A DNA stretch of 64,000 bases from an uncultured Eubacteriales bacterium (GTDB taxonomy: Bacteria > Bacillota > Clostridia > Oscillospirales > Acutalibacteraceae). The position numbers and the translations under genes are program-made. Positions 29,760-45,213 of the stretch are shown in pieces. Where the stretch lies: positions 20,833-84,832 of the forward strand of contig UQEU01000002.1 of NCBI GenBank assembly GCA_900540085.1. The letters are read 5' to 3'. Under the pieces are notes generated by a model. The model had not been told where the DNA came from, searched no databases, and saw nothing but the letters and a program-made list of their open reading frames with translations. The stretch's first letter is position 1. Each line of letters begins with the position of its first letter.

Positions 29760-30720
29760 TTATTCCTTGAAAACACCAAATGTACCTTTAAAACCATATT
29801 TGCGTAACTTGATTTTTTTAATCCGTAGTGCAGCCGAGTCATTTGATTCGAACTCTGTAAAATACCAAGTTGCATTCGGAGATATGTTAGCAATTATTTT
29901 TTTGATATAGACACTATCAACTTTCCCATAACTAAACCCATATGAATATACTTTGTCGATAGAGGAATTCAATTTCTTGAAAAATTCATTATACTTTTTC
30001 AATGGTGAGTTAGTATCTTTTCTGAAAGACAGTATCATCTCATCCAAAAATGATGAACTTATGCAGGGTCCCTCATCAAAATTTAAATTCTGATAAAGTC
30101 CTGTTCAGTCATCTTTTTCATGCCCAAAAATCAGTTTTTGACCAATTCGATTATGAATGTGAATTACTTTTTTGATACCATATAGTTTTTGGAAAGTTTT
30201 GGTATAATTAAAAGTGAAAAACTGCATATTAGGATCTCTAAACAAATCAATCAATGTTTTCTTTGGCATAAATTCAGAACCTTCGATTCTTTTTTGGATA
30301 TTCTTTATCCACACCCTAAAAAAGTCTTGCCATATTTTCGAACAATTGATAAAGCCGCTTATAAGCACATCCATGTATAAAAGATAATTTTGCATTAACT
30401 CTTGATCTTCTTCGTCGGTTTCATCTTCTTTATGATTGGGCCTAGGAAATTTATTATCAAAGTTAATATGGGCGAGAGCCTCTTCAAAATTACACCAATT
30501 CTCGCCAGCAGATTTATCCATTGAGTTTAATAAAATTTCCGTAGCAAACTCATCTGGATCAATATTTGAAAAATCCTCTAGATACACTACCTCATCTCGA
30601 AGGTTCACAACCTCCGGATACATTTCAATGATGAATGATCTAAAATCACTATATTTACTTGGAATACCATGAGCAACGTCAAATCCATTACCAGCAATAA
30701 ATAATGAGCTAATATCGATC
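29760..30720 (-). pseudogene. AbiH-family abortive-infection gene, disrupted (internal stop/frameshift near 30048-30104 and no canonical start)
   Basis: The in-frame upstream extension encodes IAGNGFDVAHGIPSKYSDF, which is the AbiH N-terminal GNGFD motif. Later come FTFNYTKTFQKLYG...IHIHNRIGQ, the AbiH FNYT/HIHG motifs. The C-terminal part continues in ORF 29760..30047 in another frame. Confidence 0.6.
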
Positions 30721-30724
30721 CCTC

Positions 30725-31150
30725 CTAAATCAGCACACCATCACAATGATCCACTTCATGCTGAATGATCTGTGCCGTCCAACCAGTGTAGATCTTGATG
30801 CAAGTTTGCATATCTAAGGTCTGATACTTGACCTTGATGGATCTATAGCGCTTGCACGGGCACGGACCACCGAGAAGTGACAGACAACCTTCCTCTGTGT
30901 CGTACACACCGTCTTTTTTGATAATCTCGGGATTGAGCATCACGGTATATGTAGGAGCTCGTCCACTCTCATCAAGGAATGCAATGATGCGCTTGCGCAC
31001 GCCGATCATATTCGCTGCCATACCGACACAACTTTCCTTGTGCGCCATCAGCGTATCAAGCAAGTCTTGAGCGACCTGCAAATCTTCTTTTATCGCAACC
31101 TCCGAATTCCTTGCAAGAAATATCGGATCATGCATTAGTTCTTTAACCAT
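30725..31150 (-). CDS. def: Peptide deformylase (island-borne copy)
   Basis: Motifs GMAANMIG, EGCLS and HEVDH. 141 aa. GC content higher than the flanking DNA. Confidence 0.85.
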   Translation of the reverse strand: MVKELMHDPIFLARNSEVAIKEDLQVAQDLLDTLMAHKESCVGMAANMIGVRKRIIAFLDESGRAPTYTVMLNPEIIKKDGVYDTEEGCLSLLGGPCPCKRYRSIKVKYQTLDMQTCIKIYTGWTAQIIQHEVDHCDGVLI

Positions 31151-31343
31151 ATCATCTTCCCTCGCAAAAATCTCAATATATCTTAATGCAAATTCAGAAT
31201 TACAATTATTGTATTTATTGAGGCTTTCCTTGGATAGTATGTAAACAACGTATATCTATCACCTATGCAAAATTCCATCAATGCAAGTTTCAACTTTTTA
31301 GTATCAAAGTTTAAAGCGGTCTATTTATCCAGCCCGCGCGCAA

Positions 31344-32968
31344 TTATTGTTTTTCCCCCCAAGACCTACCAAATAGTTCTTCGCCGTTAGGGGCAAGTCT
31401 TAATTTTGCATAGCGAGTAAGCATTTCTGCCGTTTTATCACTATATGATTCTTGTTTATCTAAAGCAATCACGACTTGTTTGCCACAAGCAATATATTGA
31501 TTTATAATGCTTTCAACCGCATCGTCGGATATTTGTTTTAAGACAACTGAATCGTGTACCAAAATAGGCAAATTAGACAAGTGCATTATTGCTAGATCGA
31601 AGACCACAAGTCCCTTATAAGCAATACCTGTTCCCGTATCATTTGGAGTAAAGAAATGATAATTTGAAACAGTAAAATGAATTGTTGGTGCGTTGAATTT
31701 TTCTGTGTAAAGTTCGCTATTTATACGCTCCATTTCAGCATTTATCGCTTTTTCTACGATTCCAAACTGTTCGCTTTTTGCGTTTTTTAACGCTTCTTCT
31801 GCATCTTTTTTTGCCACTTTAAGTTCGTCTGCTTTTTCGTGCGCATCGTTTTCAGCGCTCATTTTATTGATTTGCTTCAAAGTATCAGCATACTTTTGCA
31901 AAACAATTTTTGAAAGATTAGGATTCTTGATCAACTGTTGCAATTGATTTTCAAGTGCAGTGACAATGGCATTGTATTCATCAAGCTGTTTTAAAAGCAC
32001 TCGCTTTTCTTCCTTCAACTCATCTTTAAATATCCCCGATATTTTCTTGTGGAAAAGTTCGATTTCTTCTATATGCCTAACATTTACTTCTGGGAAGAAT
32101 ATTTGAAGTTCTGAATATGTAGTGCTTGTTTGCGAAAATCTGTACTCGATATTTTCATCCAACGTGATTAATTTGCTCTTTATATTGCTTCTCTCGATAA
32201 CTCTTTTTTTATACGAACAGCCTCTTCAGAAGCAGTTGCATCAGCATCAAGCAATCCTCGTTCAAGACCGGATGAAATATTTGCGATTTCACGTTGCAGT
32301 TTTTCGATTTCCTTCTGATTTCTGTTGTATTCTCTTTTTCCTATTTTGGATACGTACTGAAGTTTTTGTGCCTTTTCAAAAACCGAAAGAGCATCCTTAG
32401 ACGCATCTGCATTTCTTTCTAATTGTGCGATTATTTGATATCTTCCAAAAAGCTTAAGCAAAGTTAGACAAGCTTTATTTCCATTTTCACCCGAGACAGC
32501 ATTTAGTGGACGAGATTCGTCGATGTTTTTCTTGCCGTATGCGCGAATATATCTGCCAACCGCATCTCTAAATGATAGTTGCGGAATATTAACATTATAT
32601 TTTTCTGAAAGCCACTTGCAATAAGCAACATTTGAAAAGGATTCCATTGGATTATAGTTTTCATCGCATTTCCAAACAGTATTGCTATCCGTATTTTTGC
32701 GAGAAAAATAATAAAAACTTCCATTAAACTCAAATTTGAAGCAGATATTGTGAGGGGCGACATTATTCAAAATATCGGAAGATTCTGCGTATGTGCTTCC
32801 ACCAAAAACGAAATCCACGATGAGCATAAACGTTGATTTACCAATAGAATTATCTGCAGTTTTCGTTCCCAACACCACATTTAACCCATCACTAAATTCA
32901 ATTTTCTTTTGATGAAATTCTTCGCAAAATATTTCACGCAACATAACGTAGCACCTCCTCTTGATCAA
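31344..32968 (-). pseudogene. RecF/SMC-like ABC ATPase (DUF2326 / ABC-three-component-system-type), split by a frameshift at about 32162-32180
   Basis: N-terminal half 32180..32968 has the Walker A region IEFSDGLNVVLGTKTADNSIGKST. C-terminal half 31344..32162 (different frame) has a coiled coil, then a signature/D-loop-like GTGIAYKGLVVFDLAIM...LPILVHDS. Together about 535 aa. Confidence 0.6.
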
Positions 32969-33144
32969 GATACTCTATTTTTCTTAAAGCAAATAAACAA
33001 TCTAACGCATCGATGAAATCGGAATATGAAGTATATTGTTCTCGTGTTTCAGAGTAAAACTCGAATATCTGCATATTTTTCTGTAAAAGCAGATTAAGTA
33101 TAGGGAGTAATTTGCTCAATACGCTTTCTTAATACGAAGTAACT

Positions 33145-33669
33145 TTATTCGGTAATTTCATAAAACACCTCACAATTCTGGGCAAAAAATGATACAACCG
33201 CTTCACACGCTATATCGGATGTGGATAGTGTTTTGGTTTTAATCCATTGCACCAAATGTTGATAAATCAATTCTTTGTCTTGTGTTTTATAATTCATCTT
33301 TATAAAACAACTACGAATTTGACCTGCGAGTATGCTCTGGTGAAATCCGTTTTTACCATCCATATCTTTCAAAACATCTCTGATAAACGTGTAGTAGTCA
33401 AAAACATAATTTTTGACCTTCCTCTTTATTGTCCTCTCGTATGAATAAAACTTATTAGCAAGCAACTTGGGATCAAAAGACAAATTCGATAGTTCTTCGT
33501 CTGTAACAGTCGAAAGTGCTTGTAATATTGATTCGATTTGATCTTCGAGGTTTAATTTTCGAAGCAAGGCATCCAATTCAGTTTCCAATAGACACCTTTC
33601 TTTTATTTCCAATAATTGAGTGTATTCCTGCGCAGTTGTGTGAAAATCCTGTGTTGGATGACATTCCAA
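33145..33669 (-). CDS. All-alpha hypothetical protein, candidate middle component of the ATPase system. Possibly fused by frameshift to the upstream HNH-like ORF.
   Basis: 174 aa, predicted helical. Overlaps ORF 33603..33956 by 67 nt in another frame. Confidence 0.35.
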   Translation of the reverse strand: MECHPTQDFHTTAQEYTQLLEIKERCLLETELDALLRKLNLEDQIESILQALSTVTDEELSNLSFDPKLLANKFYSYERTIKRKVKNYVFDYYTFIRDVLKDMDGKNGFHQSILAGQIRSCFIKMNYKTQDKELIYQHLVQWIKTKTLSTSDIACEAVVSFFAQNCEVFYEITE

Positions 33670-33956
33670 GCACAGTGCAATTTTTTTTCAAACGACTCGC
33701 AATCTTTTCCTAGTCGACGCAATCCATTTAAATTTATATATTGTTCAATGGTCGGACTATTAAGATAGATATGTGCAATCTGAAAAAGTTTTTGATCGGG
33801 TTTAACTTGTCCGCGATACTGCAACTCTTTACCGCACAAAGGACAATGATAGTTGACTTCATTCAAATGCAACCGTATTTCCGCTTCGGTCGGATTTTGT
33901 CTATCCTTATGATACGGATCTGCCTCAATTATCTTTTTTAACTCATCTTTAGTCAC
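33603..33956 (-). CDS. HNH-like zinc-ribbon protein
   Basis: 117 aa with a YHCPLCGKEL...FQIAHIY (CxxC ... HI) HNH-type motif. Confidence 0.4.
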   Translation of the reverse strand: MTKDELKKIIEADPYHKDRQNPTEAEIRLHLNEVNYHCPLCGKELQYRGQVKPDQKLFQIAHIYLNSPTIEQYINLNGLRRLGKDCESFEKKLHCAWNVIQHRIFTQLRRNTLNYWK

Positions 33957-33975: not shown

Positions 33976-34170
33976 TTATATCATTGATAAAAGTCTTGCT
34001 AAAAGCTCTTTATCTGCGGAGCAAAAATTGTAGTCTTGTATCTCTGCGGGTGTAATCCATTTAATGTCGTTGTGATCCAGCTTTTGAGAAATACCTTCCG
34101 CTATAGTAACATTAAATAGTGTGAGATGCACCGTTAAGTCTGGGTATTCGTGGATAACATCCATAAACAC
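33976..34170 (-). pseudogene. C-terminal fragment of a NUDIX (MutT-like) hydrolase
   Basis: 64 aa, GTG-initiated. Resembles the last strands and helix of MutT-type enzymes (IKWITPAEIQDYNFCSADKELLARL). No Nudix box. Confidence 0.4.
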
Positions 34171-34646
34171 ATTTCCGACCGAGAGTGTAATAGCAAATAA
34201 ACAATTATGCCAAAATAAACGCCTATTGGATCATCATTATTTATAGCATCATTATCGCAATAAATAAAAAAATTAAAACCTGTTATAATTTCTTTTGTTG
34301 TATTTGCAATTTCAGGTATATCAGAATTAATAAACCTACAAATATTCGGATCGTAGTAGCGTGACTGAAGATAGTAGTACCCTGTTTCGTTGTCGTAGTA
34401 GCCACGATAATGCAGTGGATTGGCTTCTGCTATCTCCAAATCACCTGTAATGTCTAATATTTCGCCCCAATCATCGTAAACATATTCGCAGACGATATAT
34501 CCGTCTTCATCTATTATTGCAGTTACATCTCCGAATTGGTTCGTAACATAGTAGTACTGTCGCTCATTATACAACATTCCGACAGGCGTACCGCCTGTGT
34601 CACATTGGAAATATATGAAATTCCCGTCCGTGTCTTGTTGCGACAC
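34134..34646 (-). pseudogene. Orphan RHS C-terminal module: RHS-core end plus truncated alternative CT
   Basis: First 110 aa are about 85% identical to residues near the end of the RHS core of the 1957-aa protein (YYYVTNQFGDV...YLQSRYYDPNICRFINSDI). A DPIG motif is followed by only about 30 residues before a stop. DNA 34330-34520 is about 90% identical to 36400-36620. Confidence 0.7.
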
Positions 34647-34699
34647 TCAAGATTTTGTTTTGAGTATCGCAACAATATTTTCAATTTTAATTACCGAAT

Positions 34700-34765
34700 A
34701 AACTAAAACAATATACTCCAAAAGTCCCAACGAATAGGCGGACAGTTGTCCCAAGTGTACTGCTC
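34700..34765. repeat. Copy 2 of a ~40-bp direct repeat (ACAATATAyTCCAAAArTCCCAACGrATAGGCGGA) flanking the small membrane ORF
   Basis: 34705-34750 and 35105-35150 share caatata-tccaaaa-tcccaacg-ataggcgga with 3 mismatches. The 34705-34750 copy lies just upstream (minus-strand sense) of the orphan RHS module. Confidence 0.55.
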
Positions 34766-34796
34766 TTTGTACTATAAATCACGGTAATAAACTTCA

Positions 34797-35078
34797 TTGC
34801 CTTTCATTATTAAAAACAATATCAATATTATCAGTAACACCGAAATAATAGAAATGATACCGCTCTTATTCCAAAACGCTTTTCGTATTTTTCTGTCCGA
34901 CATAGGTATAAATGTCAAAAATAATACAGGTGCAATCAAAGGGATTAGTTGAGCAGTGGGATGGCTTACACCGCCGACATATCTACCGAAATTGCTTTTA
35001 TAAATATCTTGTGCTATAAACCAAAAAGATAAAGCACAGACAATTAATACCGAATAATTAATTTTTTAGTTTTCATAC
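34797..35078 (-). pseudogene. Small three-TM membrane protein gene (candidate orphan immunity), frameshifted in an A6 homopolymer after codon 5
   Basis: ATG at 35076-35078 gives MKTKKLIIRY*. Shifting frame at the aaaaaa run gives an open 90-codon hydrophobic frame (...LIVCALSFWFIAQDIYKS...IISIISVLLIILILFLIMKGNEVYYRDL*). Confidence 0.35.
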
Positions 35079-35104
35079 AAACTCACACCTTTCGCTGCTA
35101 AAAC

Positions 35105-35175
35105 AATATATTCCAAAAATCCCAACGGATAGGCGGATAATTTGTTTTTAAACAAAATCAGTTGCCCACATAGGT
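35105..35175. repeat. Copy 1 of the ~40-bp direct repeat
   Basis: See copy 2. Located between the immunity candidate (stop 35188) and the small membrane ORF. Confidence 0.55.
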
Positions 35176-35187
35176 TTATATTTTACT

Positions 35188-35733
35188 TTACCGTACATTA
35201 TTGATTTTAGAGTCTATAAAGTTTTTAAAACTTTCGTTATCTTTAAGACAAAAAGCATAACTTGTTTGATAATCATTCCTGTTTTTACATTTCAAAATCA
35301 CAAACTCTTCACCTGTACATATTGAATTTAATATATGGTCACCTATACGGTCCTTCTTCGTTTTATCTTCTCCGTAAATATAAATTTCTACACTTTGTAT
35401 TTCATCGTAATATATCTTTTTTGCAGGTTTAATGATGATATGTCTTATAAAAGAAACTGCCCAATTATATATTATAATACAATCATCTTTTATCTTTATA
35501 TATTTTCCCTTTACAATGTAGCAAACTAACATAATTATTGATATTACAAAGTATAATACCCCAAAAAATATCATAGCAGGATAAACTTGCGGTTCAATAA
35601 AAAAATTTATAAATACCAAAAAGCAGAATATATACAAATAATTTGTAAAACATGATGAAGCAATTATCCTTAGACTAACAAAAAAATCAACAACATTGTT
35701 TTTCTTGTTAGAGTACCCAAAACGATATTTCAT
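35188..35733 (-). CDS. Two-TM membrane protein, candidate cognate immunity protein for the RHS C-terminal toxin
   Basis: 181 aa. Starts 20 nt after the rhs stop. Two hydrophobic helices in the first 70 aa, then a soluble domain with no known motif. Confidence 0.5.
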   Translation of the reverse strand: MKYRFGYSNKKNNVVDFFVSLRIIASSCFTNYLYIFCFLVFINFFIEPQVYPAMIFFGVLYFVISIIMLVCYIVKGKYIKIKDDCIIIYNWAVSFIRHIIIKPAKKIYYDEIQSVEIYIYGEDKTKKDRIGDHILNSICTGEEFVILKCKNRNDYQTSYAFCLKDNESFKNFIDSKINNVR

Positions 35734-35752
35734 TTAACACACCTCTTTAACA

Positions 35753-38700
35753 CTATATATAATCGTGATTAACAAAACGAATTGAAACCTCCATTATAAA
35801 AATGGCTACATCAGCAATAAAATTATATACACCTGGTATATCCGGAATAAATATATTCACCAATGAAACTATAGCATTTGTAAAAGATAAGGTAAATGAT
35901 TGCCAATCATTATAAATTCCTTCTACATAATCATCATTTATAGAGACCATATCAATGATTAAACCAATAAAAGGAGCAATATTTGTTTTTTCAAAATTTG
36001 GTTTAAATTTTTTTATAATATCCATAAATTCATCTTTAGGGTTATCTATAAAGTTATGAACAATATCAGTAAATGAGTTATTAAGTATTAAATCAAATCC
36101 AGATGAAAATAAATGATTAAACGCAGTTGTAAAAAATAAAGTTGCGTTCTCCATAAATTTTTTCGAAGCACTTTCCAAACCATCAAACCATTCATTAAAA
36201 TTAAATGTTTTGTCAACTAATTTAATAATATGTTCAAATATGTTTGTAAAAGTATCAATTTCAATTGCTACGCATAACCCTCTTAATGCTGCCTCAAACC
36301 AATTTGTTGTTTTATAAAATCCTGTCGGGTCAATAAAATTGATAGGGTCATTTTGACAGTATATAAAAATATTTATTCCGAGCAAAGTGTCAATACTTAC
36401 AAGAGATAATATATCGGCATTGATAAACCTGCAAATATTCGGGTCGTAGTAGCGTGACTGAAGATAGTAGTACCCTGTTTCGTTGTCGTAGTAGTAGCCA
36501 CGATAACGCAGTGGGTTGGCTTCTGCTATCTCCAAATCGCCCGTAATATCTAATATTTCGCCCCAATCACCGTAAACATATTCGCAGACGATTTTACCGT
36601 CTTCATCAGCCAAAGCAACTATATCGCCTAGTTGGTTTGTAATATAATAATATTGAATATGATTATAAACCAAGCCGAGAGGTGTGCCGTTTTCAGCGTA
36701 TTGAAAATAAATAGAATTGCCGTTTGAGTCTTTTTGTGAAATAAGTTTTCCTTGTTCGTAGTTATAAAATGTTTTGACACCGTTTATATCTTTTAAAATT
36801 CGCATACCGTTGTCATCATAATTATAACTGTACTTATTCTCGCCATCTGTTAACTCAGATAAATATCTTCCTACTTTCCACTTGAACTGTCTGTTCGCAT
36901 AAGAAACAGGATTGCCCATATCGTCGTATGTAATCGGCACTCCGTTTACCGACAACAATCTGTCTTTCCATCCATCCTGTGAATAGGCAAAATCTGACTT
37001 TTCTCCGTTAACACTTTTAGAAACAATATTGCCTCGCTCATCGTACTCATATTCACAATTGATCGTACCGTTGCTTTTAATCAACTGACCTTTTTCATCA
37101 TAAGTATAGTTTTCAATATAATCTAAATCGCCATACTTACTGTTTATTGATACAAGTTTATTATCTTTGTCATAAACAGTCTCAAAACTATATTTTTTCG
37201 ACAGATTTTCATAATAACGATTTACAATATTTCCTTCTTCGTCTATTTTATTATGAGAAGTAAAGGTAACATTGCTTTTTATTCTGCCTAAAACATTGTT
37301 TTCGTTTTCGTCATGCTCAAAATTGTATTCAAAAGATTTCGAAGAATTAGAAGAATTATTTGTTTCGGTTGAATCATTATTTATAATATCTCTTGAAAAA
37401 ACTATGCTGTTTTCACCATGTACAATATGATAAACTTGGCCAAAATGTAAAGATGTGATATCGTCCGGTATATTTTTATCTTTATTAGATTTAGTTACAA
37501 ATACTAAATGAGCTATTTCTTGACTGCCGTTTATTCCTTCACCATATAGTTTTTCTGTACAAGAATAAAAATAGTTCAATAAACTAATTGTTTTTGCGGC
37601 AAGACTTCCGTCACTATTATATTCATATGTAACATCATCTTTTTCATTGCCGTCAAAATATTGTCTGCTTACTTTTCCTTCTAAATATTCATAAGTTCTG
37701 CTTCCGCCGTTTGAGTATTTTTCAGCAATCAAATTAAACTTTTCATCATACTGATATGTTACTGCGGTTTTTCCGCCTATATCAATTTTAGAAACTTCAC
37801 CATGATTTATATAATGGAATTTATAAATGTCAAACTCGGCAAGTTCAAGAGAACCTCTGTCATTGTATGTATATTCGGTAACTTTGCCTAATCTGTTTTT
37901 TACTTTTGCAACCGTTCCGTTTGAATTGTAGGAATAAGTAACGCCTGCATTCTTGTCCGAATATGTATTTGACTCGGGAAGACCGTCTTTTGTTTTGTCA
38001 TAATCTTCAGTTGTTATATACTGTACAACTCTTCCGTATTCATCATATACGGTACGAGATATTTCTCCGTTTTCATTGCTGAAAACTATATTGTTCGCTT
38101 TATCATAAATATATTCAGATTTGTTGTCGCCATTCATTGAAGTAAGAACATTTCCTAGTATATTGTATGTATAATCTACCTTACTTACCGAAGAGCTGTC
38201 AGAATTTTTTGCAGTTAAAGTTGCAATATTGACTACATTACCGTATTCATCATAACTATATGATACAGTTTTATCTGTTTTACTGTCAACAGTTTTTGTG
38301 AGCAGACCGTTATCATAAGTATAACTTATTGTATCAAAGCAAGTCAATGATGAATCATAAACAGCAGGAATTCTGCCTGAATAATTTTCTTTTAATGTTG
38401 CTGAAATAATTAGTTCATTATTATCGTTATATACTGAATAGGTATAATTGTTTCCTGTCTGCTGACGAATCAATTTATCATTCTCATCATACGAATAATA
38501 CAAATCTTCTTCGTTATCATTACTGTGAACTTCCGAAATCAAATTATTGTTTGAATCATATTTATACGATACTTCGTCATCAGTTGTTTTATATAAAACA
38601 AGCCTATTAAATTCATCGTACTGATATTCTGTTTTATTTCCTTTTTCGTCAACTGACGAAACTATGTTAAGAGCATCATTGTAACTGTACAAAACAGTTT

Positions 38701-41626
38701 TTTCTGTTGAATCTTCAATAAAAACAGTTTTATTTTTATTGTCATAAACATAGTCGGTATATGCACCGTTGTCATACTCATATGATGTTACTCTGCCGTC
38801 AGAATTATACTCTATCGACTTATCTGAACTTTTTTTCAAAAGTCCGTTTGAATATGAGTATTTACCGACGGTAACACCTTCTTGGTTTATAACCTCTGAA
38901 AGATTGTTGTTATTGTCATATTCATATTTAATCGTATTGCCTGCGGGGTCTGTAACAGATACTATATTTTTATTTAAATCAAGCGCTAAAACATATTTTC
39001 GTTCAGAACCGTCAGAAATTGTTATTGAAGACTCTTCTCGTGCTATTAATATAGAATCTCCGTACTTACTTTCGACGGACTCAAGTACACCTTCAGAATT
39101 ATAGATATAATTAGTATTTCCAATTTGAATAATATACCCATTTTCACTGACATTGAGTATATAACCGTTTTTATTATCTGTATATACTCCTACGGAAGAT
39201 TTTAAAAACCGGACTCTCATTCCGTTAGTCAAAACAGCAGTATAAATATAATCGCTTTCCTTTGAAACAGTGCTGTCCGTTGAAAAGAACCATTTTTTGT
39301 TTACACTGCTATACTCTCTGACAAAATCAAATGAAACCGTTTTATATTTCATTGAAAAATCAATTGAATTTTCTTTATACTCTCCCAATCGTGAACTGTC
39401 AGGAGTGATTTTTTTACTTACAATTTCATCACTGTCTTCAAATTTAGCATATACAATGCTTTCCTGATAAAGCGGCAATGCAAACGGAACAGTATATTTC
39501 TGCCATTCACCGTTTTCACCTATTTTATACAGTAAATTGTCATCATTATTTCTCGGATTAATTATACCTGTAAGACAACCGTCTGTATATAATTCGGGCT
39601 TTAAGAAATATGATTCATCAGGAGCTATTTTATTAATATCAATTTGAACAGGTTTGGAAATATTACCCGCATTATCTCTTGCATAGATATATACAGTTTG
39701 ATTTTCCGAAAATGTTTTTGTATTTTCAGACTGCCAAGAATAAGCACCCTCAGTACTTGAAAAACTGTAATCTTTAATTCCCGATTCAGAATCGCTTGAG
39801 CTTGCCGTCAGAGTTACTTTATCCATAGTCCATTTTGTCGGATTGCCTGTAACGGACGAAACTGACGGTGCGGTTTTATCTATTTTATTTATTGTTTGTG
39901 TTGAAACAAGACGGATATTTCCCATAGCGTCGCGCACATAAACATAAACAGTACAGTTTGATGAAAATGTTTTGCTGTTGGCTGATTGCCAACTATATGA
40001 ACCTTTTGTTGTTGAAAAAGAATACGGAGAAGAATGAAGTCCTGAACCGCCGTTGTTATCTTTCGCTCCGTTAACTGTCAGAGTAACATTATTTTGTGTC
40101 CAATTTGAAATATTGCCTGTTACACTTGTTACTGTAGGCGCAGTTGTATCATTTGTATAATTAATTACGGTATATGGACGCATTGCAGATGAAGAATATT
40201 GACGGGAAGTAAAAGCACGCCAATTATAGTTTCCGTCAGTTTCTTCTGAACTTTCAAAACAAAAGCCATAGTTTTTATTTGTTCCGTCAGCCCATTTTTG
40301 CACCATATTTGTAATATTAAATTTATACCAATACTTATTATCAGGGTCATCCGTAGATTTACTGTTTATTGTTCTTGTAGTTCCTTTTACAGAGTTATAT
40401 GTAGGTCTTGTTTTCCAAGTAACTTCACCCTCGTACCAAGCGCTTGTTACCATATGAGGCGTAACTTTTGTTGTTGTAGTTCTGCCTGTCGTTTCTCTCT
40501 GCCATGAATAAGCACTGTTTATTACAGCACCTTTTTTAATTTCACTCGGCATAGTAAACTGATTTAATACTCTGCCGTAGCCGTACTCGGAAGCTCGTCC
40601 GAAACAACAAGTTTCTTCTTTGCCGTAACATATAGACGCACTTGTACTTTTATTGTATATACCTGCGTCTCTGTAATTGCCTAATTGACTTGTAGTAGGG
40701 TCAATGACTACGGGGTATTTTGTGCTGTCGCTCGTAAACCATTCATTAGGAACGGTTATTGTCATTATATAAGATGTTTCATCTTTATCTATGAGAGAGT
40801 ATTCACAATCAACATAATGTGAATTTAAATCTCCCTCTACATATTCGCTGTCGTAAGCGAACGGAGCGGTAAAGGTCTGAATAACGGTATCATCATTATT
40901 AATGATAGAAATAGTGCCGTCTTCATTGAGTTTAGCCGTACAATTGTTTGTTTTTAATTCAAATGAAAATGAGTTTTTATTAATATTTCGATTAAGCACA
41001 ATTTCATCTTTAAGACCGTTTAATTGAGGATAAAATCGCAAATTTGTTCCTTCACCGTAAATATTTTCATATTGAAAAACTTCAAATTTTTCGTTTGAAA
41101 ATTCTGCTACAGATTCAGTACCCTCTGCTTTTGTATCGGAATAAGGGACAATAGAATAAGAATAATTACCGATTACTGCTTCTATCCCCTTTGAAGAATC
41201 TTTTGAAAAATTTATCCTGTAATCGTTTTGTCCGTTTGTGTAATCATAGCCATTATCTTTTAGTTTTTTATCGGTCTGTTTTTCAACAGATATATCCTTT
41301 GTCTTGAGATTTCCGTTATCGTCAACAAAGGAAATCGGCTCTGAAAACAGATATACGGTATTTGAACCGTCTCGGTTTTCAAGATTTATTGTATGGTCAT
41401 CTGCAAGCATAGCATTTTTGTCAACTGCTGCTGCACCTTCGGTATCAACAATTTCCGAAGCATATGCAGAAAGCATAGACTGAATACCAAGCCATTCTTG
41501 AAGTCTTGAGCTTCCGACTGTCAGTGTTACTATCGTTCCGAAGCCGATAATTACAGCAAGAATGACCGATAGAATCTTTTTCCACGGTTTGTGATTTGTT
41601 GAATTTAATTCATAAAAATCTTCCAT
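35753..41626 (-). CDS. RHS/YD-repeat polymorphic toxin (WapA-like), 1957 aa. N-terminal TM anchor, two tandem Ig-like domains, YD repeats, RHS core ending ...NDPINFIDPTGF, then an uncharacterised C-terminal domain of about 215 aa.
   Basis: Many YD repeats (for example YxYDxxGRL-like: YTYNDRGSL, YQYDEKFNL, YEYDERGNI). RHS-repeat-associated core (YYLQSRYYDPNICRFINADI) and a DPxG cleavage-type motif. RBS AGGAGA 8 nt upstream of the ATG at 41626. Confidence 0.9.
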   Translation of the reverse strand: MEDFYELNSTNHKPWKKILSVILAVIIGFGTIVTLTVGSSRLQEWLGIQSMLSAYASEIVDTEGAAAVDKNAMLADDHTINLENRDGSNTVYLFSEPISFVDDNGNLKTKDISVEKQTDKKLKDNGYDYTNGQNDYRINFSKDSSKGIEAVIGNYSYSIVPYSDTKAEGTESVAEFSNEKFEVFQYENIYGEGTNLRFYPQLNGLKDEIVLNRNINKNSFSFELKTNNCTAKLNEDGTISIINNDDTVIQTFTAPFAYDSEYVEGDLNSHYVDCEYSLIDKDETSYIMTITVPNEWFTSDSTKYPVVIDPTTSQLGNYRDAGIYNKSTSASICYGKEETCCFGRASEYGYGRVLNQFTMPSEIKKGAVINSAYSWQRETTGRTTTTKVTPHMVTSAWYEGEVTWKTRPTYNSVKGTTRTINSKSTDDPDNKYWYKFNITNMVQKWADGTNKNYGFCFESSEETDGNYNWRAFTSRQYSSSAMRPYTVINYTNDTTAPTVTSVTGNISNWTQNNVTLTVNGAKDNNGGSGLHSSPYSFSTTKGSYSWQSANSKTFSSNCTVYVYVRDAMGNIRLVSTQTINKIDKTAPSVSSVTGNPTKWTMDKVTLTASSSDSESGIKDYSFSSTEGAYSWQSENTKTFSENQTVYIYARDNAGNISKPVQIDINKIAPDESYFLKPELYTDGCLTGIINPRNNDDNLLYKIGENGEWQKYTVPFALPLYQESIVYAKFEDSDEIVSKKITPDSSRLGEYKENSIDFSMKYKTVSFDFVREYSSVNKKWFFSTDSTVSKESDYIYTAVLTNGMRVRFLKSSVGVYTDNKNGYILNVSENGYIIQIGNTNYIYNSEGVLESVESKYGDSILIAREESSITISDGSERKYVLALDLNKNIVSVTDPAGNTIKYEYDNNNNLSEVINQEGVTVGKYSYSNGLLKKSSDKSIEYNSDGRVTSYEYDNGAYTDYVYDNKNKTVFIEDSTEKTVLYSYNDALNIVSSVDEKGNKTEYQYDEFNRLVLYKTTDDEVSYKYDSNNNLISEVHSNDNEEDLYYSYDENDKLIRQQTGNNYTYSVYNDNNELIISATLKENYSGRIPAVYDSSLTCFDTISYTYDNGLLTKTVDSKTDKTVSYSYDEYGNVVNIATLTAKNSDSSSVSKVDYTYNILGNVLTSMNGDNKSEYIYDKANNIVFSNENGEISRTVYDEYGRVVQYITTEDYDKTKDGLPESNTYSDKNAGVTYSYNSNGTVAKVKNRLGKVTEYTYNDRGSLELAEFDIYKFHYINHGEVSKIDIGGKTAVTYQYDEKFNLIAEKYSNGGSRTYEYLEGKVSRQYFDGNEKDDVTYEYNSDGSLAAKTISLLNYFYSCTEKLYGEGINGSQEIAHLVFVTKSNKDKNIPDDITSLHFGQVYHIVHGENSIVFSRDIINNDSTETNNSSNSSKSFEYNFEHDENENNVLGRIKSNVTFTSHNKIDEEGNIVNRYYENLSKKYSFETVYDKDNKLVSINSKYGDLDYIENYTYDEKGQLIKSNGTINCEYEYDERGNIVSKSVNGEKSDFAYSQDGWKDRLLSVNGVPITYDDMGNPVSYANRQFKWKVGRYLSELTDGENKYSYNYDDNGMRILKDINGVKTFYNYEQGKLISQKDSNGNSIYFQYAENGTPLGLVYNHIQYYYITNQLGDIVALADEDGKIVCEYVYGDWGEILDITGDLEIAEANPLRYRGYYYDNETGYYYLQSRYYDPNICRFINADILSLVSIDTLLGINIFIYCQNDPINFIDPTGFYKTTNWFEAALRGLCVAIEIDTFTNIFEHIIKLVDKTFNFNEWFDGLESASKKFMENATLFFTTAFNHLFSSGFDLILNNSFTDIVHNFIDNPKDEFMDIIKKFKPNFEKTNIAPFIGLIIDMVSINDDYVEGIYNDWQSFTLSFTNAIVSLVNIFIPDIPGVYNFIADVAIFIMEVSIRFVNHDYI
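39640..40150 (-). repeat. Tandem duplication encoding two Ig-like (Big/He_PIG-type) domains inside the RHS protein
   Basis: Protein segments TAPTVTSVTGNISNWTQNNVTLTVNGAKDNNGGSGLHSSPYSFSTTKGSYSWQSANSKTFSSNCTVYVYVRDAMGNI and TAPSVSSVTGNPTKWTMDKVTLTASSSDSESGIKDYSFSSTEGAYSWQSENTKTFSENQTVYIYARDNAGNI align residue by residue. Confidence 0.6.
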
Positions 41627-41835: not shown

Positions 41836-43131
41836 TTAAATTTTAAGAAACAGAATTGTTAAATGAAATTTATGTTCTGTATCATTATAAGACCATTCAT
41901 ATTTGCCATTGTTCTTTTTTGCATATTTTTTTATTATTTTTGTACCAAATCCATGGTTACTTTTATCAAATTTTGTTGTAAGTAATTGTTTGCCGGTATG
42001 TTTTGGCGGAAAATCACAGGAATTTACAACATTCAGCAAATCCATATTATTAATATGCCTTAATGAAAATTCAATACTTTTTTCTTTGCTTGATTTTGCA
42101 GCGTCAACAGCATTATCAAGAATGTTGTTAAGAAGTATAGATAATTCAGAATTATCTATATAATCTAAATTTGCAGTTTTTACTTCATAGTCAAATTTAA
42201 TATTATTATTTTTGCAAACAACTATATATTTGCTGATAATTAAATCAAGCATTTTGTTGTTGGATATATTTATAATATTCCTGTTTTGAAATTCAGGATA
42301 AATCTTTTTTATATACGCTTTTACTTCATCTATATTATCAAAACTGCCGATGGTAAGATAGTGATTTTTCGTATCGTGAAACATCATCTGCAATTCGTTG
42401 TTTTGATGTTGTAAAACATCGAGATATGTTTGATTTAAATTATACAGTCTTTTTTCGGACTCCAGCTCATTTATTTTTTCTTCGCGATTGGCAAGTATTT
42501 GGTAATATATAAAAATAAATATACTTGCAATAATATATAGAATACAAACAGCTGTCGTTGCAATTTTGTATGATGTTGATACTTCAAATTCTAATGCAAT
42601 AAATAAAAATATTGTACAGGATAAAATAGTTAATACAGGAAATATAAACAGTGGCAGAAATTGCTTTATTTTATTATTTTTATGTCCTATTTTTATTATT
42701 ATCAATGATAATAATTGAGATAAAATAAAATATACTAATTTACATATTAATACAACGATTATAAGAATATGGACATCATCTTTATATTTATTTGTCGGAA
42801 GTTCAAAAATTGCAGAAAGTTGAAAAATAGTAATTATTTCAGTAGAAAACATAAGAGTATCAAGAATAATGCTTTGAATTGCGGCATTTTTAACTGAAAT
42901 ATCAAAACATAACAGGGCAAATATAAAATTTATTGCAAAAAATACAATTAAATTAATTATTTCATTTTCAAAAAGACTGAATATACATGAACTTGGCAAA
43001 AACAATAATAATCCTATTAAAATAATAAGGAAATTTGGCTTTTGCTTTTTTTCATATATTCTTGTAAAAAAGCAAAACGATATTATCATTTCAAAAAAAT
43101 AAACAAACATCATTACTATAAGTCTTGACAT
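41836..43131 (-). CDS. Sensor histidine kinase, HPK10 (AgrC/ComD-like) subfamily, polytopic N-terminal sensor domain
   Basis: 431 aa. Six or seven N-terminal TM helices. H-box MMFHDTKNHYL. N-box LLNNILDNAVDAA. G-box region HGFGTKIIKKYAKKNNG. ATG overlaps the response-regulator stop (TAATG). Confidence 0.85.
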   Translation of the reverse strand: MSRLIVMMFVYFFEMIISFCFFTRIYEKKQKPNFLIILIGLLLFLPSSCIFSLFENEIINLIVFFAINFIFALLCFDISVKNAAIQSIILDTLMFSTEIITIFQLSAIFELPTNKYKDDVHILIIVVLICKLVYFILSQLLSLIIIKIGHKNNKIKQFLPLFIFPVLTILSCTIFLFIALEFEVSTSYKIATTAVCILYIIASIFIFIYYQILANREEKINELESEKRLYNLNQTYLDVLQHQNNELQMMFHDTKNHYLTIGSFDNIDEVKAYIKKIYPEFQNRNIINISNNKMLDLIISKYIVVCKNNNIKFDYEVKTANLDYIDNSELSILLNNILDNAVDAAKSSKEKSIEFSLRHINNMDLLNVVNSCDFPPKHTGKQLLTTKFDKSNHGFGTKIIKKYAKKNNGKYEWSYNDTEHKFHLTILFLKI

Positions 43132-43844
43132 TATTTACCCTCCATAAAATGCATAAACTTTTGATAAAAATCTGTTTGTCTGTTTCTTGCAATATTTATT
43201 TCATATTTATTGTCAAGAATAATACGCTTTCTTTCATACGATGTGACATAGTTAAAATTTATAATATAACTTTTATGCGGAGATATAAATATCGTGCTCG
43301 CAAGATTATCTTTCCAAAAGTTCATATTATGGTCGGAATGGTATTCTTTATTACAAGTAACAATTTTTGTTTTGCGCTTTTCAATTTCTACAAATATTAT
43401 GTCTTGTGCAGAAATCCGTTCCACCATTCTATTATCCTTTACATAAAAACTGATTGTTGAATTATCAATCCTTTTTATTGCGTCACTCAATCCTCTGTAA
43501 AATCTTTGTGAATCAAGCGGCTTTTCAAAAAAACGAACGGCATTAAGATTTAAAGCATCATCAAGATATTTTTTGTGAGCAGTAACATAAATCAGAATAA
43601 TGTGCGGATTTCTTTTCCTTAATTCTTCGCCGAGTTTTATACCGTTCATATTATCCATTTCGACATCGAGTATCGCAATATCATAATTCATATTACTCGA
43701 GAGCATATCTGACGAATCGCTAAATACACTTTTTTCAAAATCTATATTATTATCTATTGAAAAGAAATCCAAATGCTCAATTATGTTGTTAATATATATT
43801 TGTTCGTCATCACATATTGCGACTTTCAGAATAATCACCACCAA
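43131..43844 (-). CDS. Response regulator, receiver plus LytTR DNA-binding domain (AgrA/ComE-like)
   Basis: Receiver motifs (VAICDDE ... ILDVEM ... KLGEELR) and C-terminal LytTR pattern (...FFEKPLDSQRFYRG ... ISPHKSYIINFNYV). Confidence 0.85.
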   Translation of the reverse strand: MVVIILKVAICDDEQIYINNIIEHLDFFSIDNNIDFEKSVFSDSSDMLSSNMNYDIAILDVEMDNMNGIKLGEELRKRNPHIILIYVTAHKKYLDDALNLNAVRFFEKPLDSQRFYRGLSDAIKRIDNSTISFYVKDNRMVERISAQDIIFVEIEKRKTKIVTCNKEYHSDHNMNFWKDNLASTIFISPHKSYIINFNYVTSYERKRIILDNKYEINIARNRQTDFYQKFMHFMEGK

Positions 43845-43876
43845 AAAATAAAGTCAATAGGCAACGCCTATTGACA
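43841..43876 (-). terminator. Rho-independent terminator downstream of the XRE gene, upstream of the RR-HK operon
   Basis: Perfect 10-bp stem GTCAATAGGC-aac-GCCTATTGAC, with a T-run on the minus strand. Confidence 0.65.
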
Positions 43877-43910
43877 AAATAATAACATATAGTCTTAATA
43901 AATACAAATT

Positions 43911-44240
43911 CTATTTTTCCTTGAAATCTATCAATGTGTGTGCAACAGATTCTAAAATAGCTATATCTTTATCAGTACATAAATTCAACAAATCTATTAA
44001 ATTATCTTTAGAATTATCTCTGATATTTCCATAAAGAATATAATCTAATCTTGTGTCCAATCCATCACAAATTGTAATAAGAGTGTTTAAACTATATGAG
44101 CCACCATTTTCAACAGTAGAAATATGAGTTGGTGATATATGTATTTTTTTACCTAAACTTTCCTGTGTCAAATGTTGTTCTTTTCTTAATTTAACAATAT
44201 GGCTGCCAATTTTTGTTGTATTGATTTTTATATTACCCAT
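43911..44240 (-). CDS. XRE-family HTH transcriptional regulator
   Basis: HTH_3 (IVKLRKEQHLTQESLGKKIHISPTHISTVENG). The start at MGNIK, downstream of the track ATG, is preferred. Confidence 0.7.
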   Translation of the reverse strand: MGNIKINTTKIGSHIVKLRKEQHLTQESLGKKIHISPTHISTVENGGSYSLNTLITICDGLDTRLDYILYGNIRDNSKDNLIDLLNLCTDKDIAILESVAHTLIDFKEK

Positions 44241-44383
44241 GACATCACCCACAAAAATTATACCATCATACAATAAAAATGTTCTCCTACAATATAGTAT
44301 AACCACTAAAACAGATTGTAATTACAAACTAATTTCAAAGTTTTACTAATTATCAAAATAAATATATTATAAATGCCTTAAAA

Positions 44384-44435
44384 ATAGCATAGTTTTGTTT
44401 CAGATATTGATTCCCGAAAAACTATGCAATATAAT
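44384..44435 (+). promoter_or_regulatory. Promoter of the peptide-agrB operon (-35 TTGATT 44407-44412, 17 nt, -10 TATAAT 44430-44435), preceded by the 17-bp motif ATAGCATAGTTTTGTTT (44384-44400). An inverted partial copy (CTATGCAAT) lies in the spacer.
   Basis: Sequence: aaaaATAGCATAGTTTTGTTTcagataTTGATTcccgaaaaaCTATGCAATATAATtg. The motif is identical to the one next to the rhs -35. Confidence 0.45.
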
Positions 44436-44489
44436 TGTTACAGTTATGGTTAATATTAGTTTTCTGATTAAAAGAAAGGAGTAATTTCT

Positions 44490-44637
44490 ATGAAAAATAT
44501 TAGTTTGAAAAACATATTAAAAAGTGTTGTTATGCTTTCGGTCAAGAACAGTGCAAACAGTACGACAAGCGGAACTGTATATCAACCAAAGGCACCTGTT
44601 GCTTTGAAGAAATTCAGCAAGATTGAGAATGGTAAAT
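44490..44637 (+). CDS. 49-aa peptide, candidate secreted signalling-peptide precursor (AgrD-like position, but lacks Cys)
   Basis: Strong RBS AAAGGAGT 7 nt upstream. MKNISLKNILKSVVMLSVKNSANSTTSGTVYQPKAPVALKKFSKIENGK. The stop overlaps the agrB start by 15 nt. Confidence 0.4.
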
Positions 44638-45213
44638 AAATTATCAACTTATTTTACTGAAAAAATGATTTCAAACGGAACAATAAGTGACAAAGATAAA
44701 GAATTATATATATATGGTTTGTTTATGTTTTTGTCACAACTTATGTTTTTTATTATAGCCTGTATATTCGGTTTTTTATTAAACTGTATTATTGAAAGTA
44801 TTATTTTCTATATTGCATTTCAGTTCATAAGAAAATATGCCGGCGGCTATCACGCAGCAACCGAAACAAGATGCGAAATACTATCAACTCTGTCAATATT
44901 AGCTTGTATTGTTGTAATCAGGTTGTCAAAAACTTATGATTTTCAGACTGTTCTGCTTATTATCAGTGCAGTATCGTCAGTCTGTATATTTGTCTTTTGT
45001 CCGCTTGATACACCTGAAAAGCCCTTATCGAAAAAAGAGTTCAAATATTTCCGTAAAGTTTCTTGGGTTATATTACTTGTGATAAGCATAAATATTATCG
45101 TTTCGTATTTTTTCAAATTTCAAATGGTGCTTGTTCCTTGCTGTTTAAGTTTAATTCTTGAAAGCGTACTGATTGTTGCCGGAAAAATAAAAAAAATTAA
45201 AATATCTTATTAA
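44623..45213 (+). CDS. agrB: AgrB-family membrane peptidase (accessory gene regulator B homolog)
   Basis: 196 aa, 5-6 TM helices. The conserved AgrB catalytic region FQFIRKYAGGYHAATETRCEILS has His and Cys spaced as in S. aureus AgrB H77/C84. Confidence 0.75.
   Translation: MRMVNKLSTYFTEKMISNGTISDKDKELYIYGLFMFLSQLMFFIIACIFGFLLNCIIESIIFYIAFQFIRKYAGGYHAATETRCEILSTLSILACIVVIRLSKTYDFQTVLLIISAVSSVCIFVFCPLDTPEKPLSKKEFKYFRKVSWVILLVISINIIVSYFFKFQMVLVPCCLSLILESVLIVAGKIKKIKISY

Follow-up and report, generated by a model that had tools for sequence, protein, structure and literature searches.

What does the C-terminal tip of a large RHS protein do when it resembles no known toxin domain, and is the small gene directly behind it the cognate immunity gene? 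This question is raised by a locus in a 64,000-nucleotide stretch of contig UQEU01000002.1 (assembly GCA_900540085.1) from an uncultured Eubacteriales bacterium; the whole stretch is referred to here as the window. A first, sequence-only reading had described a Gram-positive, contact-dependent RHS toxin with an unrecognised tip and an adjacent immunity candidate with two transmembrane (TM) helices. In this study, the tip and the downstream protein were found to belong to two families that, like the modelled fold of the tip, are undescribed in the libraries and paper texts searched. Tip and downstream gene move as one recombining cassette. The locus is very probably a toxin/immunity module, to judge from its sequence relatives, and a membrane-ionophore mechanism is proposed for the tip tentatively, at slightly less than even odds. 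The genes and domains on which the argument rests are the following, with the basis of each open reading frame (ORF) or domain in brackets.

35753..41626, minus strand: RHS/YD-repeat polymorphic toxin gene (ORF, profile matches, matches to solved shells; AGGAG 8 nt before the ATG)
35756..36319, minus strand: C-terminal tip (CT), 188 aa, acidic, all-helical in the model, unnamed family (searches, alignment, model)
36179..36307, minus strand: most conserved CT segment, residues 5-47, (T/D)NWxEAxLKxLxLxIEIDxxTxxFE...FNFNxW(Y/F) (alignment A1)
35771..35908, minus strand: C-terminal hydrophobic helical hairpin, CT 138-183, formed in the model by helices 6 and 7 and containing a PDIPG turn (model and hydropathy)
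35188..35733, minus strand: candidate for the cognate immunity gene, 181 aa, with two TM helices (~aa 23-46 and 53-73) and a ~108-aa C-terminal domain (ORF, hydropathy, family)
41516..41578, minus strand: N-terminal hydrophobic segment, aa 17-37 (Kyte-Doolittle maximum 2.49)
40163..40648, minus strand: DNRLRE domain, aa 327-488 (NCBIfam NF033679, E=1.7e-20)
39626..40141, minus strand: pair of tandem ~85-aa repeat domains, aa 496-582 and 586-667 (self-BLASTP)
36320..39079, minus strand: YD-repeat shell to the end of the RHS-associated core, aa 850-1769 (profile matches and RHS-shell alignment)

In the ORF list, the toxin gene encodes a protein of 1957 aa. The RHS toxin architecture read from the letters was borne out by Pfam and NCBIfam profiles and by alignment with solved RHS shells. 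RHS_repeat (PF05593, E=4e-34) and YD_repeat_2x (TIGR01643, E=8.5e-20) match the protein, RHS_core (NF041261) covers aa 850-1059, and Rhs_assc_core (TIGR03696, E=1.5e-20) covers aa 1685-1769. In a phmmer search against PDB sequences, the core aligns with the RHS shells 8h8a, 7q97 and 8qja and with that of Tse5 (8cp6, spanning window core aa 1660-1769), and these alignments stop at aa 1769-1771. The core ends in DPTGF (aa 1766-1770), as had been noticed, and both presumed autoproteolysis aspartates, D1738 and D1766 (DPTG), are present. Since the motif and the ends of the solved shells coincide, the tip is 188 aa long, shorter than the ~215 aa first estimated.

The N-terminal part of the protein was described less exactly by the sequence-only reading. 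Its membrane anchor is a hydrophobic segment (aa 17-37) that may serve as a signal anchor or as a cleaved Sec signal peptide. Its tandem domains do exist, with 54% identity between the ~85-aa repeats (E=7e-28, self-BLASTP), but no profile in the Pfam and NCBIfam scans of the RHS protein names them, so Ig-like is a putative label. These scans also gave neither a PAAR match nor a cell-wall-binding profile match; the N-terminus consists of the Sec-type hydrophobic segment followed by the DNRLRE domain.

The CT shows no match to Pfam or NCBIfam, and no member of its family has a relative in Pfam, NCBIfam or the PDB, which agrees with the earlier statement that the tip carries no recognised toxin signature. 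A match of the CT to DUF4844 (E=0.0066, below the family cut-off) was rejected as chance because it is restricted to one of 14 family members. Relatives were sought among 5.8 billion proteins by a word-indexed search and among 1.84 billion cluster representatives by an exhaustive HMMER search. With the CT, the word-indexed search retrieved only a 99% identical copy (P0001); taken together, word-indexed searches with the CT, the immunity protein and the profile of alignment A1 gave near-identical copies plus P0014 and P0019 only. It was the exhaustive HMMER search that brought up the family, a rare one, with 16 proteins at E<1e-3 and nine at E<1e-10. Fifteen of the 16 share 27-46% amino acid identity with the window CT, the remaining one being P0001. 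The domain is C-terminal in every match and lies behind an RHS core in all 15 that have upstream sequence. A contig scan of 185,579 species-representative (GTDB) genomes detected no CT relative.

Alignment A1 comprises 14 members of the CT family. T25, F28, F39 and W44 are invariant, E29 and N42 are near-invariant, and so is N184 near the C-terminus, where the proteins end in either FxNGx(Y/F)WG or NHDYI. Across the 14 members there is no conserved His, Cys, Ser, Lys or Arg. The A1 profile has no match among PDB sequences at E up to 10, and six family peptide motifs have none in the literature texts searched. About half of the family (P0007, P0009, P0011, P0012, P0013, P0015, P0016 and P0018) carries an additional ~120-aa helical segment (TPQLSINL...KL..F..K..YYL.NPD..IN..LSK...) between the RHS core and the NWFEA motif. 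This segment has no Pfam match and is absent from the window protein; it could be an entry or translocation domain.

Structure prediction of both proteins had been proposed at the outset. For the tip, AlphaFold2 with A1 as input gave a seven-helix model with a mean predicted local distance difference test score (pLDDT) of 80.2 and a pTM of 0.69. Foldseek searches of this model returned nothing at E<=1e-3 from either the PDB or BFVD, with generic helical matches in the PDB reaching a best TM-score of 0.28, so no specific fold match was obtained. Each of the 14 members has its most hydrophobic segment, helix 6 or 7, within the C-terminal hairpin, with a best 17-residue Kyte-Doolittle score of 1.6-2.55, and a Pro/Gly-rich turn joins the two helices. 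The hairpin is variable in sequence across A1, whereas the N-terminal segment is conserved. What the tip carries is a moderately hydrophobic hairpin and not a classical TM segment, and the window CT is among the less hydrophobic members.

The downstream gene follows the RHS gene after 19 nt (not 20 nt, as first counted), and this spacer contains AAAGAGGTG upstream of the second ATG. Its 181-aa product has hydrophobic segments at aa 28-46 (Kyte-Doolittle 1.94) and aa 53-71 (2.75), in line with the two TM helices originally read. The protein has no match in Pfam, NCBIfam or the PDB. A Pfam search of seven members of its family at E up to 10 gave no match, bPH families included, and the family profile produced only noise against PDB sequences. 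The word-indexed search with the 181-aa protein retrieved near-identical copies only. Together with its close variants, the protein is found on considerably more than 100 contigs of public assemblies, NCBI ones among them, and none is annotated by name.

A match of 149 aa (P0003, ENA, on a 674-nt contig) was rejected as probably an assembly chimera. It joins an unrelated N-terminus, via VSYTHLDVYKRQ, to the last ~40 residues of the immunity protein, with 100% identity over its last 23%. The joining segment is presumably the translation of a Nextera sequencing adapter.

The DNA beside the CT homologues was read for the next ORF. At every locus readable downstream, a two-TM protein of one divergent family lies next to the CT homologue, with ORF lengths of 162-184 aa and spacings from a 4-nt overlap to 37 nt. 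The downstream ORFs are as follows.

L001/L002: 181 aa
L003: 162 aa
L004: partial
L005, first pair: 184 aa
L005, second pair: 182 aa
L006: 167 aa, directly behind a tip ending in ...LFLFLNHDYI
L007/L008: 172 aa
L009: 178 aa
L010: 180 aa

At L005 (289..2261), the two paralogous tip and immunity pairs lie within one orphan array.

Pairwise comparisons among the immunity proteins are weak (E=0.002 and E=7e-4), and BLASTP of the window protein against L005 is not significant, so that family membership had to be tested with a profile. The proteins align consistently as one family (alignment A4) with the motifs KKGVxIYDD, IxYxDIxxVE and YIxIELKNGxKYxFxLENNxxFV. A hidden Markov model (HMM) trained on five members, with the window protein left out, gives the latter 41.9 bits (E=5e-12); with the same HMM, the best of 1000 composition-matched region-wise shuffles reaches 9.9 bits. 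The nearest immunity relative is the L006 protein (31% identity, tblastn E=1e-12). The tip at L006 shares its ...LFLFLNHDYI ending with P0004, the nearest distant relative of the window tip (38%). The nearest immunity relative therefore stands beside a tip resembling the nearest tip relative, indicating that both proteins diverge together. Their linkage is kept at 27-38% identity for the tip and 13-31% for the immunity protein, at no fewer than eight loci (>=8).

All immunity members share a K/R-rich N-terminus, two TM helices separated by a loop of 6-14 residues (6 in the window protein), and K/R right after the second TM helix. Under the positive-inside rule, this pattern predicts an N-in/C-in topology with a cytoplasmic, basic C-terminal domain of ~105 aa.

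The mobility of the pair is documented by an orphan module in another metagenome (L001/L002), whose tip and immunity protein share 99.5% and 98.3% amino acid identity with those in the window. The features that belong to this comparison are the following.

34671..36739, minus strand: mobile cassette of core-homology arm, CT, immunity gene and small membrane-protein gene (blastn against L001/L002)
36560..36580, no strand: approximate recombination breakpoint, within the coding part of the RHS core and ~250 nt upstream of the CT junction (identity step)
34706..35065, minus strand: pseudogene of a 124-aa small membrane protein (tblastn 98% over aa 5-124; three-frame translation)
34134..34646, minus strand: orphan RHS-core fragment, 170 aa (Rhs_assc_core, E=1e-15)

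In blastn, the cassette corresponds to L001 8604..10673 with 96.7% identity over 2070 nt. The L001 orphan is a 329-aa ORF that begins inside the RHS core (MSQQDTDGNF...) and sits in an array with another orphan bearing a Tox-REase-9 tip. In a sliding window against L001, identity is 63-72% from ~36760 to ~36570, 98-100% from ~36570 to ~34771 (~1.8 kb) and 93% down to 34671, past which the sequences are unrelated. At the breakpoint it jumps from 72% to 98% between adjoining 100-nt bins, at the position where the TIGR03696 match starts (aa 1685). This stepped profile points to a crossover within the core coding region ~250 nt upstream of the tip. The RHS protein at L003 shares 60% identity over its first ~650 residues (window aa 7-664) and carries a different tip. 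CT orphan modules also occur beside toxin orphans such as those of Tox-REase-9 and Tox-WTIP.

Several further observations concern the cassette and its surroundings. The 124-aa membrane-protein gene is intact in L001, and the window copy has lost its start codon and acquired one W-to-stop change. It is flanked inside the cassette by 45-nt direct repeats (34703-34747 and 35098-35142, 89% identical), at least one copy of which (>=1) is also present in L001 and in L002; the repeats may be the scar of a recombination event or belong to gene ends that were duplicated. The orphan fragment shares 69% amino acid identity with the main core, has the same core start as the L001 orphan and is ~95% identical in nucleotides to the 5' arm of that orphan. 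After DPIG its tip is cut to ~28 aa, where it meets the C-terminal half of a NUDIX_4 (MutT-like) gene (33976..34170, minus strand, E=8e-8); this gene fragment overlaps the truncated end. The tip of this orphan, the immunity gene belonging to it and the NUDIX gene's 5' half appear to have been lost through a deletion or insertion. GC content drops to 26% at 35001..36000 (tip and immunity gene), compared with 30-36% in the RHS gene body, which fits a separately evolving, imported cassette. The main RHS protein at L003 (2936..9801, 2116 aa) ends in an unannotated helical tip of ~250 aa whose C-terminal helix is hydrophobic, and a 172-aa gene comes next.

A tip and a downstream gene that are co-inherited, co-diverging and recombining together bear the signature of a toxin with its cognate immunity protein. 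The homologous two-TM protein after a homologous tip at every readable locus, with the joint cassette, likewise argues for the immunity role that the downstream gene was given at the outset. That the C-terminal region instead serves a surface RHS protein as a structural or adhesive appendage, with a functionally unrelated membrane protein downstream, is very improbable: the absence of names for these sequences, which occur only in unannotated, mostly metagenomic assemblies, leaves room for it, but the domain is placed exactly behind the RHS autoproteolysis motif, it is exchanged in one cassette with the downstream gene and forms orphan modules beside Tox-REase-9 and Tox-WTIP orphans, and the two-gene linkage persists at the low identities given above.

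For the mode of action, we propose that the YD-repeat shell encloses the 188-aa toxin domain and that the protein would be exported via Sec. Aspartyl autoproteolysis (D1738, D1766, DPTG|F) would free the toxin domain. After release at a neighbouring cell, the hairpin may insert into the cytoplasmic membrane, where the inserted domain would act as an ionophore or pore and dissipate the membrane potential. In the producer membrane, the 181-aa cognate immunity protein, predicted to be N-in/C-in, would neutralise the toxin within the bilayer or at the cytoplasmic face, and its sequence-variable TM helices together with the toxin hairpin may set the specificity of the pair. Homologous recombination in the conserved core swaps the cassette into the main rhs gene, and displaced orphan modules stay downstream. 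We give this whole proposal, of a Sec-exported RHS toxin with a released ionophore tip, a membrane immunity protein and a swapped cassette, a probability of about 0.5.

A membrane ionophore or pore is favoured because the CT family shows no enzyme-like conservation, because its helical bundle carries a family-wide hydrophobic hairpin, and because the immunity protein lies embedded in the membrane and exposes hardly any surface to the outside. The pairing of the variable regions, toxin hairpin with immunity TM helices, and the precedents of Tse5/Tsi5 and of the CDI (contact-dependent growth inhibition) ionophores are further reasons for it.

Tse5 of Pseudomonas aeruginosa (RhsP1) is an Rhs protein whose CT lacks predicted enzymatic activity and makes ion-selective pores, and Tsi5, with two predicted TM regions, neutralises it (PMC9637101). 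The window system resembles this pair in its RHS cocoon with aspartyl autoproteolysis (predicted for the window protein), in a CT of no predicted enzymatic activity with putative hydrophobic or amphipathic helices, and in an immunity protein with two predicted TM regions. No sequence relation between the two CTs was detected with the A1 profile among PDB sequences, although the Tse5 CT chain may be absent from the PDB, where the 1121-aa shell is present. Delivery also differs, since Tse5 relies on a PAAR-like domain, VgrG and the type VI secretion system of a Gram-negative bacterium, whereas the window protein has a Sec-type signal, DNRLRE and tandem repeats and no PAAR domain in the profile scans. 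Compared with Tsi5, the window immunity protein has an extra soluble domain of ~105 aa.

CDI ionophores are predicted to be five-helix bundles and are paired with polymorphic cognate CdiI immunity proteins of ~30% identity (PMC11630599). Like the window CT, the tips of the CdiA-CT EC93 group are polymorphic and are modelled as helical bundles of membrane-spanning length. Immunity identity of ~30% within a group and paralogous pairs in arrays are also common to CDI/CdiI and the CT family. The scaffolds differ: CDI uses CdiA/CdiB (type V secretion system) with a VENN motif, the window protein is an RHS protein, and no sequence or profile match connects them. CDI toxins combine five-helix bundles with separate entry domains, whereas the window tip is a single seven-helix domain, and they come from proteobacteria, whereas the window locus is Bacillota-like.

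A pore-forming colicin likewise places amphipathic helices around a hydrophobic hairpin, as an 'inside-out membrane protein', and is neutralised in the membrane by a small polytopic immunity protein. In the model, the hairpin feature is present in the CT as helices 6 and 7 (CT 138-183) within the helical bundle; the CT matches neither Pfam Colicin (PF01024) nor the ten-helix globin-like fold. Two-TM proteins are exceptions among immunity families and are thought to be membrane-acting (Zhang et al. 2012, PMC3482391). From the same survey, Tox-WTIP is an RHS-associated, non-catalytic tip predicted to form pores, as favoured here for the CT, and its immunity families Imm17 and Imm-CdiI have two TM helices, like the window immunity protein. 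Tox-WTIP, however, consists of two helices with RxxR and W-TIP motifs, both of which are absent from A1. Neither the window CT nor its immunity protein has a Pfam match to Tox-WTIP, Imm17 or Imm-CdiI.

The N-terminal DNRLRE and tandem-repeat region of the window protein differs from that of WapA of Bacillus subtilis. WapA carries tRNase tips that are paired with soluble WapI immunity proteins, whereas the window CT has no nuclease match in Pfam or NCBIfam and its immunity protein is a two-TM membrane protein. Otherwise WapA (mentioned in PMC4436062 and PMC8321402) is similar: it is a YD-repeat protein with Sec-type export, which is predicted for the window protein, its C-terminal toxin is polymorphic, and the immunity gene lies next to it.

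Several observations weigh against an ionophore. No 19-residue window of the window CT reaches a Kyte-Doolittle score of 1.5, and all 14 CT members are acidic, with net charges of -10 to -25 (-13 for the window CT). Such acidity is unusual for proteins approaching anionic bacterial membranes. The polar cluster of D22, T25 and E29 in helix 1, combined with N42 and N184, might form an active site or a site for ion binding. In A4, the best-conserved part of the immunity family is the predicted cytoplasmic soluble domain, a pattern that would equally fit the binding of a toxin that reaches the cytoplasm. The single-sequence structure model of the immunity protein was poor (pLDDT 49) and unusable. 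A PH-like fold of the YdbS/YdbT type for the soluble domain is a tentative idea, drawn from an architecture of two TM helices followed by strands and a C-terminal helix.

The charge of the CT, the modest hydrophobicity of the window CT and the conserved cytoplasmic immunity domain keep two other explanations alive. In the first, the tip is a helical enzyme of new fold that works in the target cytoplasm on nucleotides, nucleic acids or some other soluble substrate, the immunity C-terminal domain binds and blocks the tip, and the TM helices merely tether the immunity protein to the membrane. The strong conservation in the soluble domain (KKGVxIYDD, IxYxDIxxVE, ELKNGxKYxFxLEN), the conserved polar residues D22, T25, E29, N42 and N184 as a potential active site, and the ~120-aa helical linker of half of the members as a potential entry domain would suit such an enzyme. 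It is nevertheless unlikely, given that the CT family lacks a conserved His, Cys, Ser, Lys or Arg and shows no similarity to an enzyme family in sequence or fold, that the conserved hydrophobic hairpin would be left unexplained, and that immunity proteins against cytoplasmic toxins are mostly soluble (Zhang et al. 2012, PMC3482391).

The second explanation, which we rate as less probable again, is that the tip acts at the membrane without forming a pore, by binding or degrading a lipid-linked cell-wall precursor or by blocking an essential membrane protein complex, with the immunity protein shielding the target or sequestering the toxin in the membrane. This would agree equally well with an immunity protein embedded in the membrane and with the hydrophobic hairpin, a cation or a pyrophosphate-metal group could be bound by the acidic body with its polar cluster, and CDI ionophores themselves require specific membrane-protein receptors (PMC11630599). 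Searches of Pfam and the PDB, however, linked the tip neither to TelC, colicin M or phospholipase nor to any other family of envelope-targeting toxins, and an outer loop of 6-14 residues offers the immunity protein little surface against a toxin at the outer face.

The neighbouring genes include an Agr-type quorum-sensing set directly upstream of the RHS gene (41836..45213) and defence-island content just downstream (30105..33956, minus strand).

41836..43131, minus strand (that of the RHS gene): AgrC-like GHKL histidine kinase
43131..43844, minus strand (that of the RHS gene): LytTR response regulator
43911..44306, minus strand (that of the RHS gene): HTH_3 protein
44490..44639, plus strand: 49-aa ORF just before agrB, sequence ...SGTVYQPKAPVALKK, AgrD propeptide candidate
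44623..45213, plus strand: AgrB, divergent
33603..33956, minus strand: 117-aa ORF of an ABC-3C system
33145..33669, minus strand: ABC-3C CTD11
32180..32968, minus strand: AAA_23
31344..32162, minus strand: DUF2326
30105..30623, minus strand: AbiH fragment

The 49-aa ORF could encode the AgrD propeptide. The kinase gene is separated from the RHS gene by 209 nt with no clear terminator, so the RHS toxin may be density-regulated. In the defence region, the AAA_23 and DUF2326 ORFs may be one split ATPase gene, and an MC7 match was found at L013, a locus identical to the ABC-3C region.

Regarding the origin of the locus, the whole RHS protein retrieved from species-representative genomes only a 56% N-terminal match, on a short metagenome-assembled genome scaffold labelled Bacteroides sp., and one distant RHS protein of Omnitrophota. 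The window segment is base-for-base identical to the ENA metagenome scaffold ERZ28621163 (SANK15-1 scaffold_9, 213,856 bp). A GC content of about 35%, an L21 leader and the Agr-type genes fit a Bacillota-type chromosome. The words contact-dependent and Gram-positive in the sequence-only reading were assumptions, and the Agr genes and the L21 leader are consistent with the second of them.

Systems of this type are familiar; neither the two families, of tip and of immunity protein, nor the modelled fold is described in the libraries and paper texts searched. Unannotated RHS tips are common, which makes the CT find useful rather than surprising. To our knowledge, RHS toxins of Gram-positive gut anaerobes are almost unstudied, and membrane-acting RHS tips are known experimentally mainly from Pseudomonas Tse5. 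A toxin-domain family and its matching immunity family, both absent from Pfam, NCBIfam and the PDB, are now defined, with domain boundaries, conserved residues, a structural model and about nine natural cognate pairs on hand for specificity studies. The window and the L001 orphan together provide a clean natural case of tip replacement by RHS-core recombination. The most far-reaching picture, in which an undescribed RHS toxin family of unseen fold forms channels with its hairpin in Gram-positive gut bacteria, is countered by an undescribed immunity family within the bilayer and is perhaps under Agr control, is possible though doubtful. If the tip is an ionophore, it would represent a new fold for bacterial membrane attack and would provide a tool for studies of strain-level competition in the gut.

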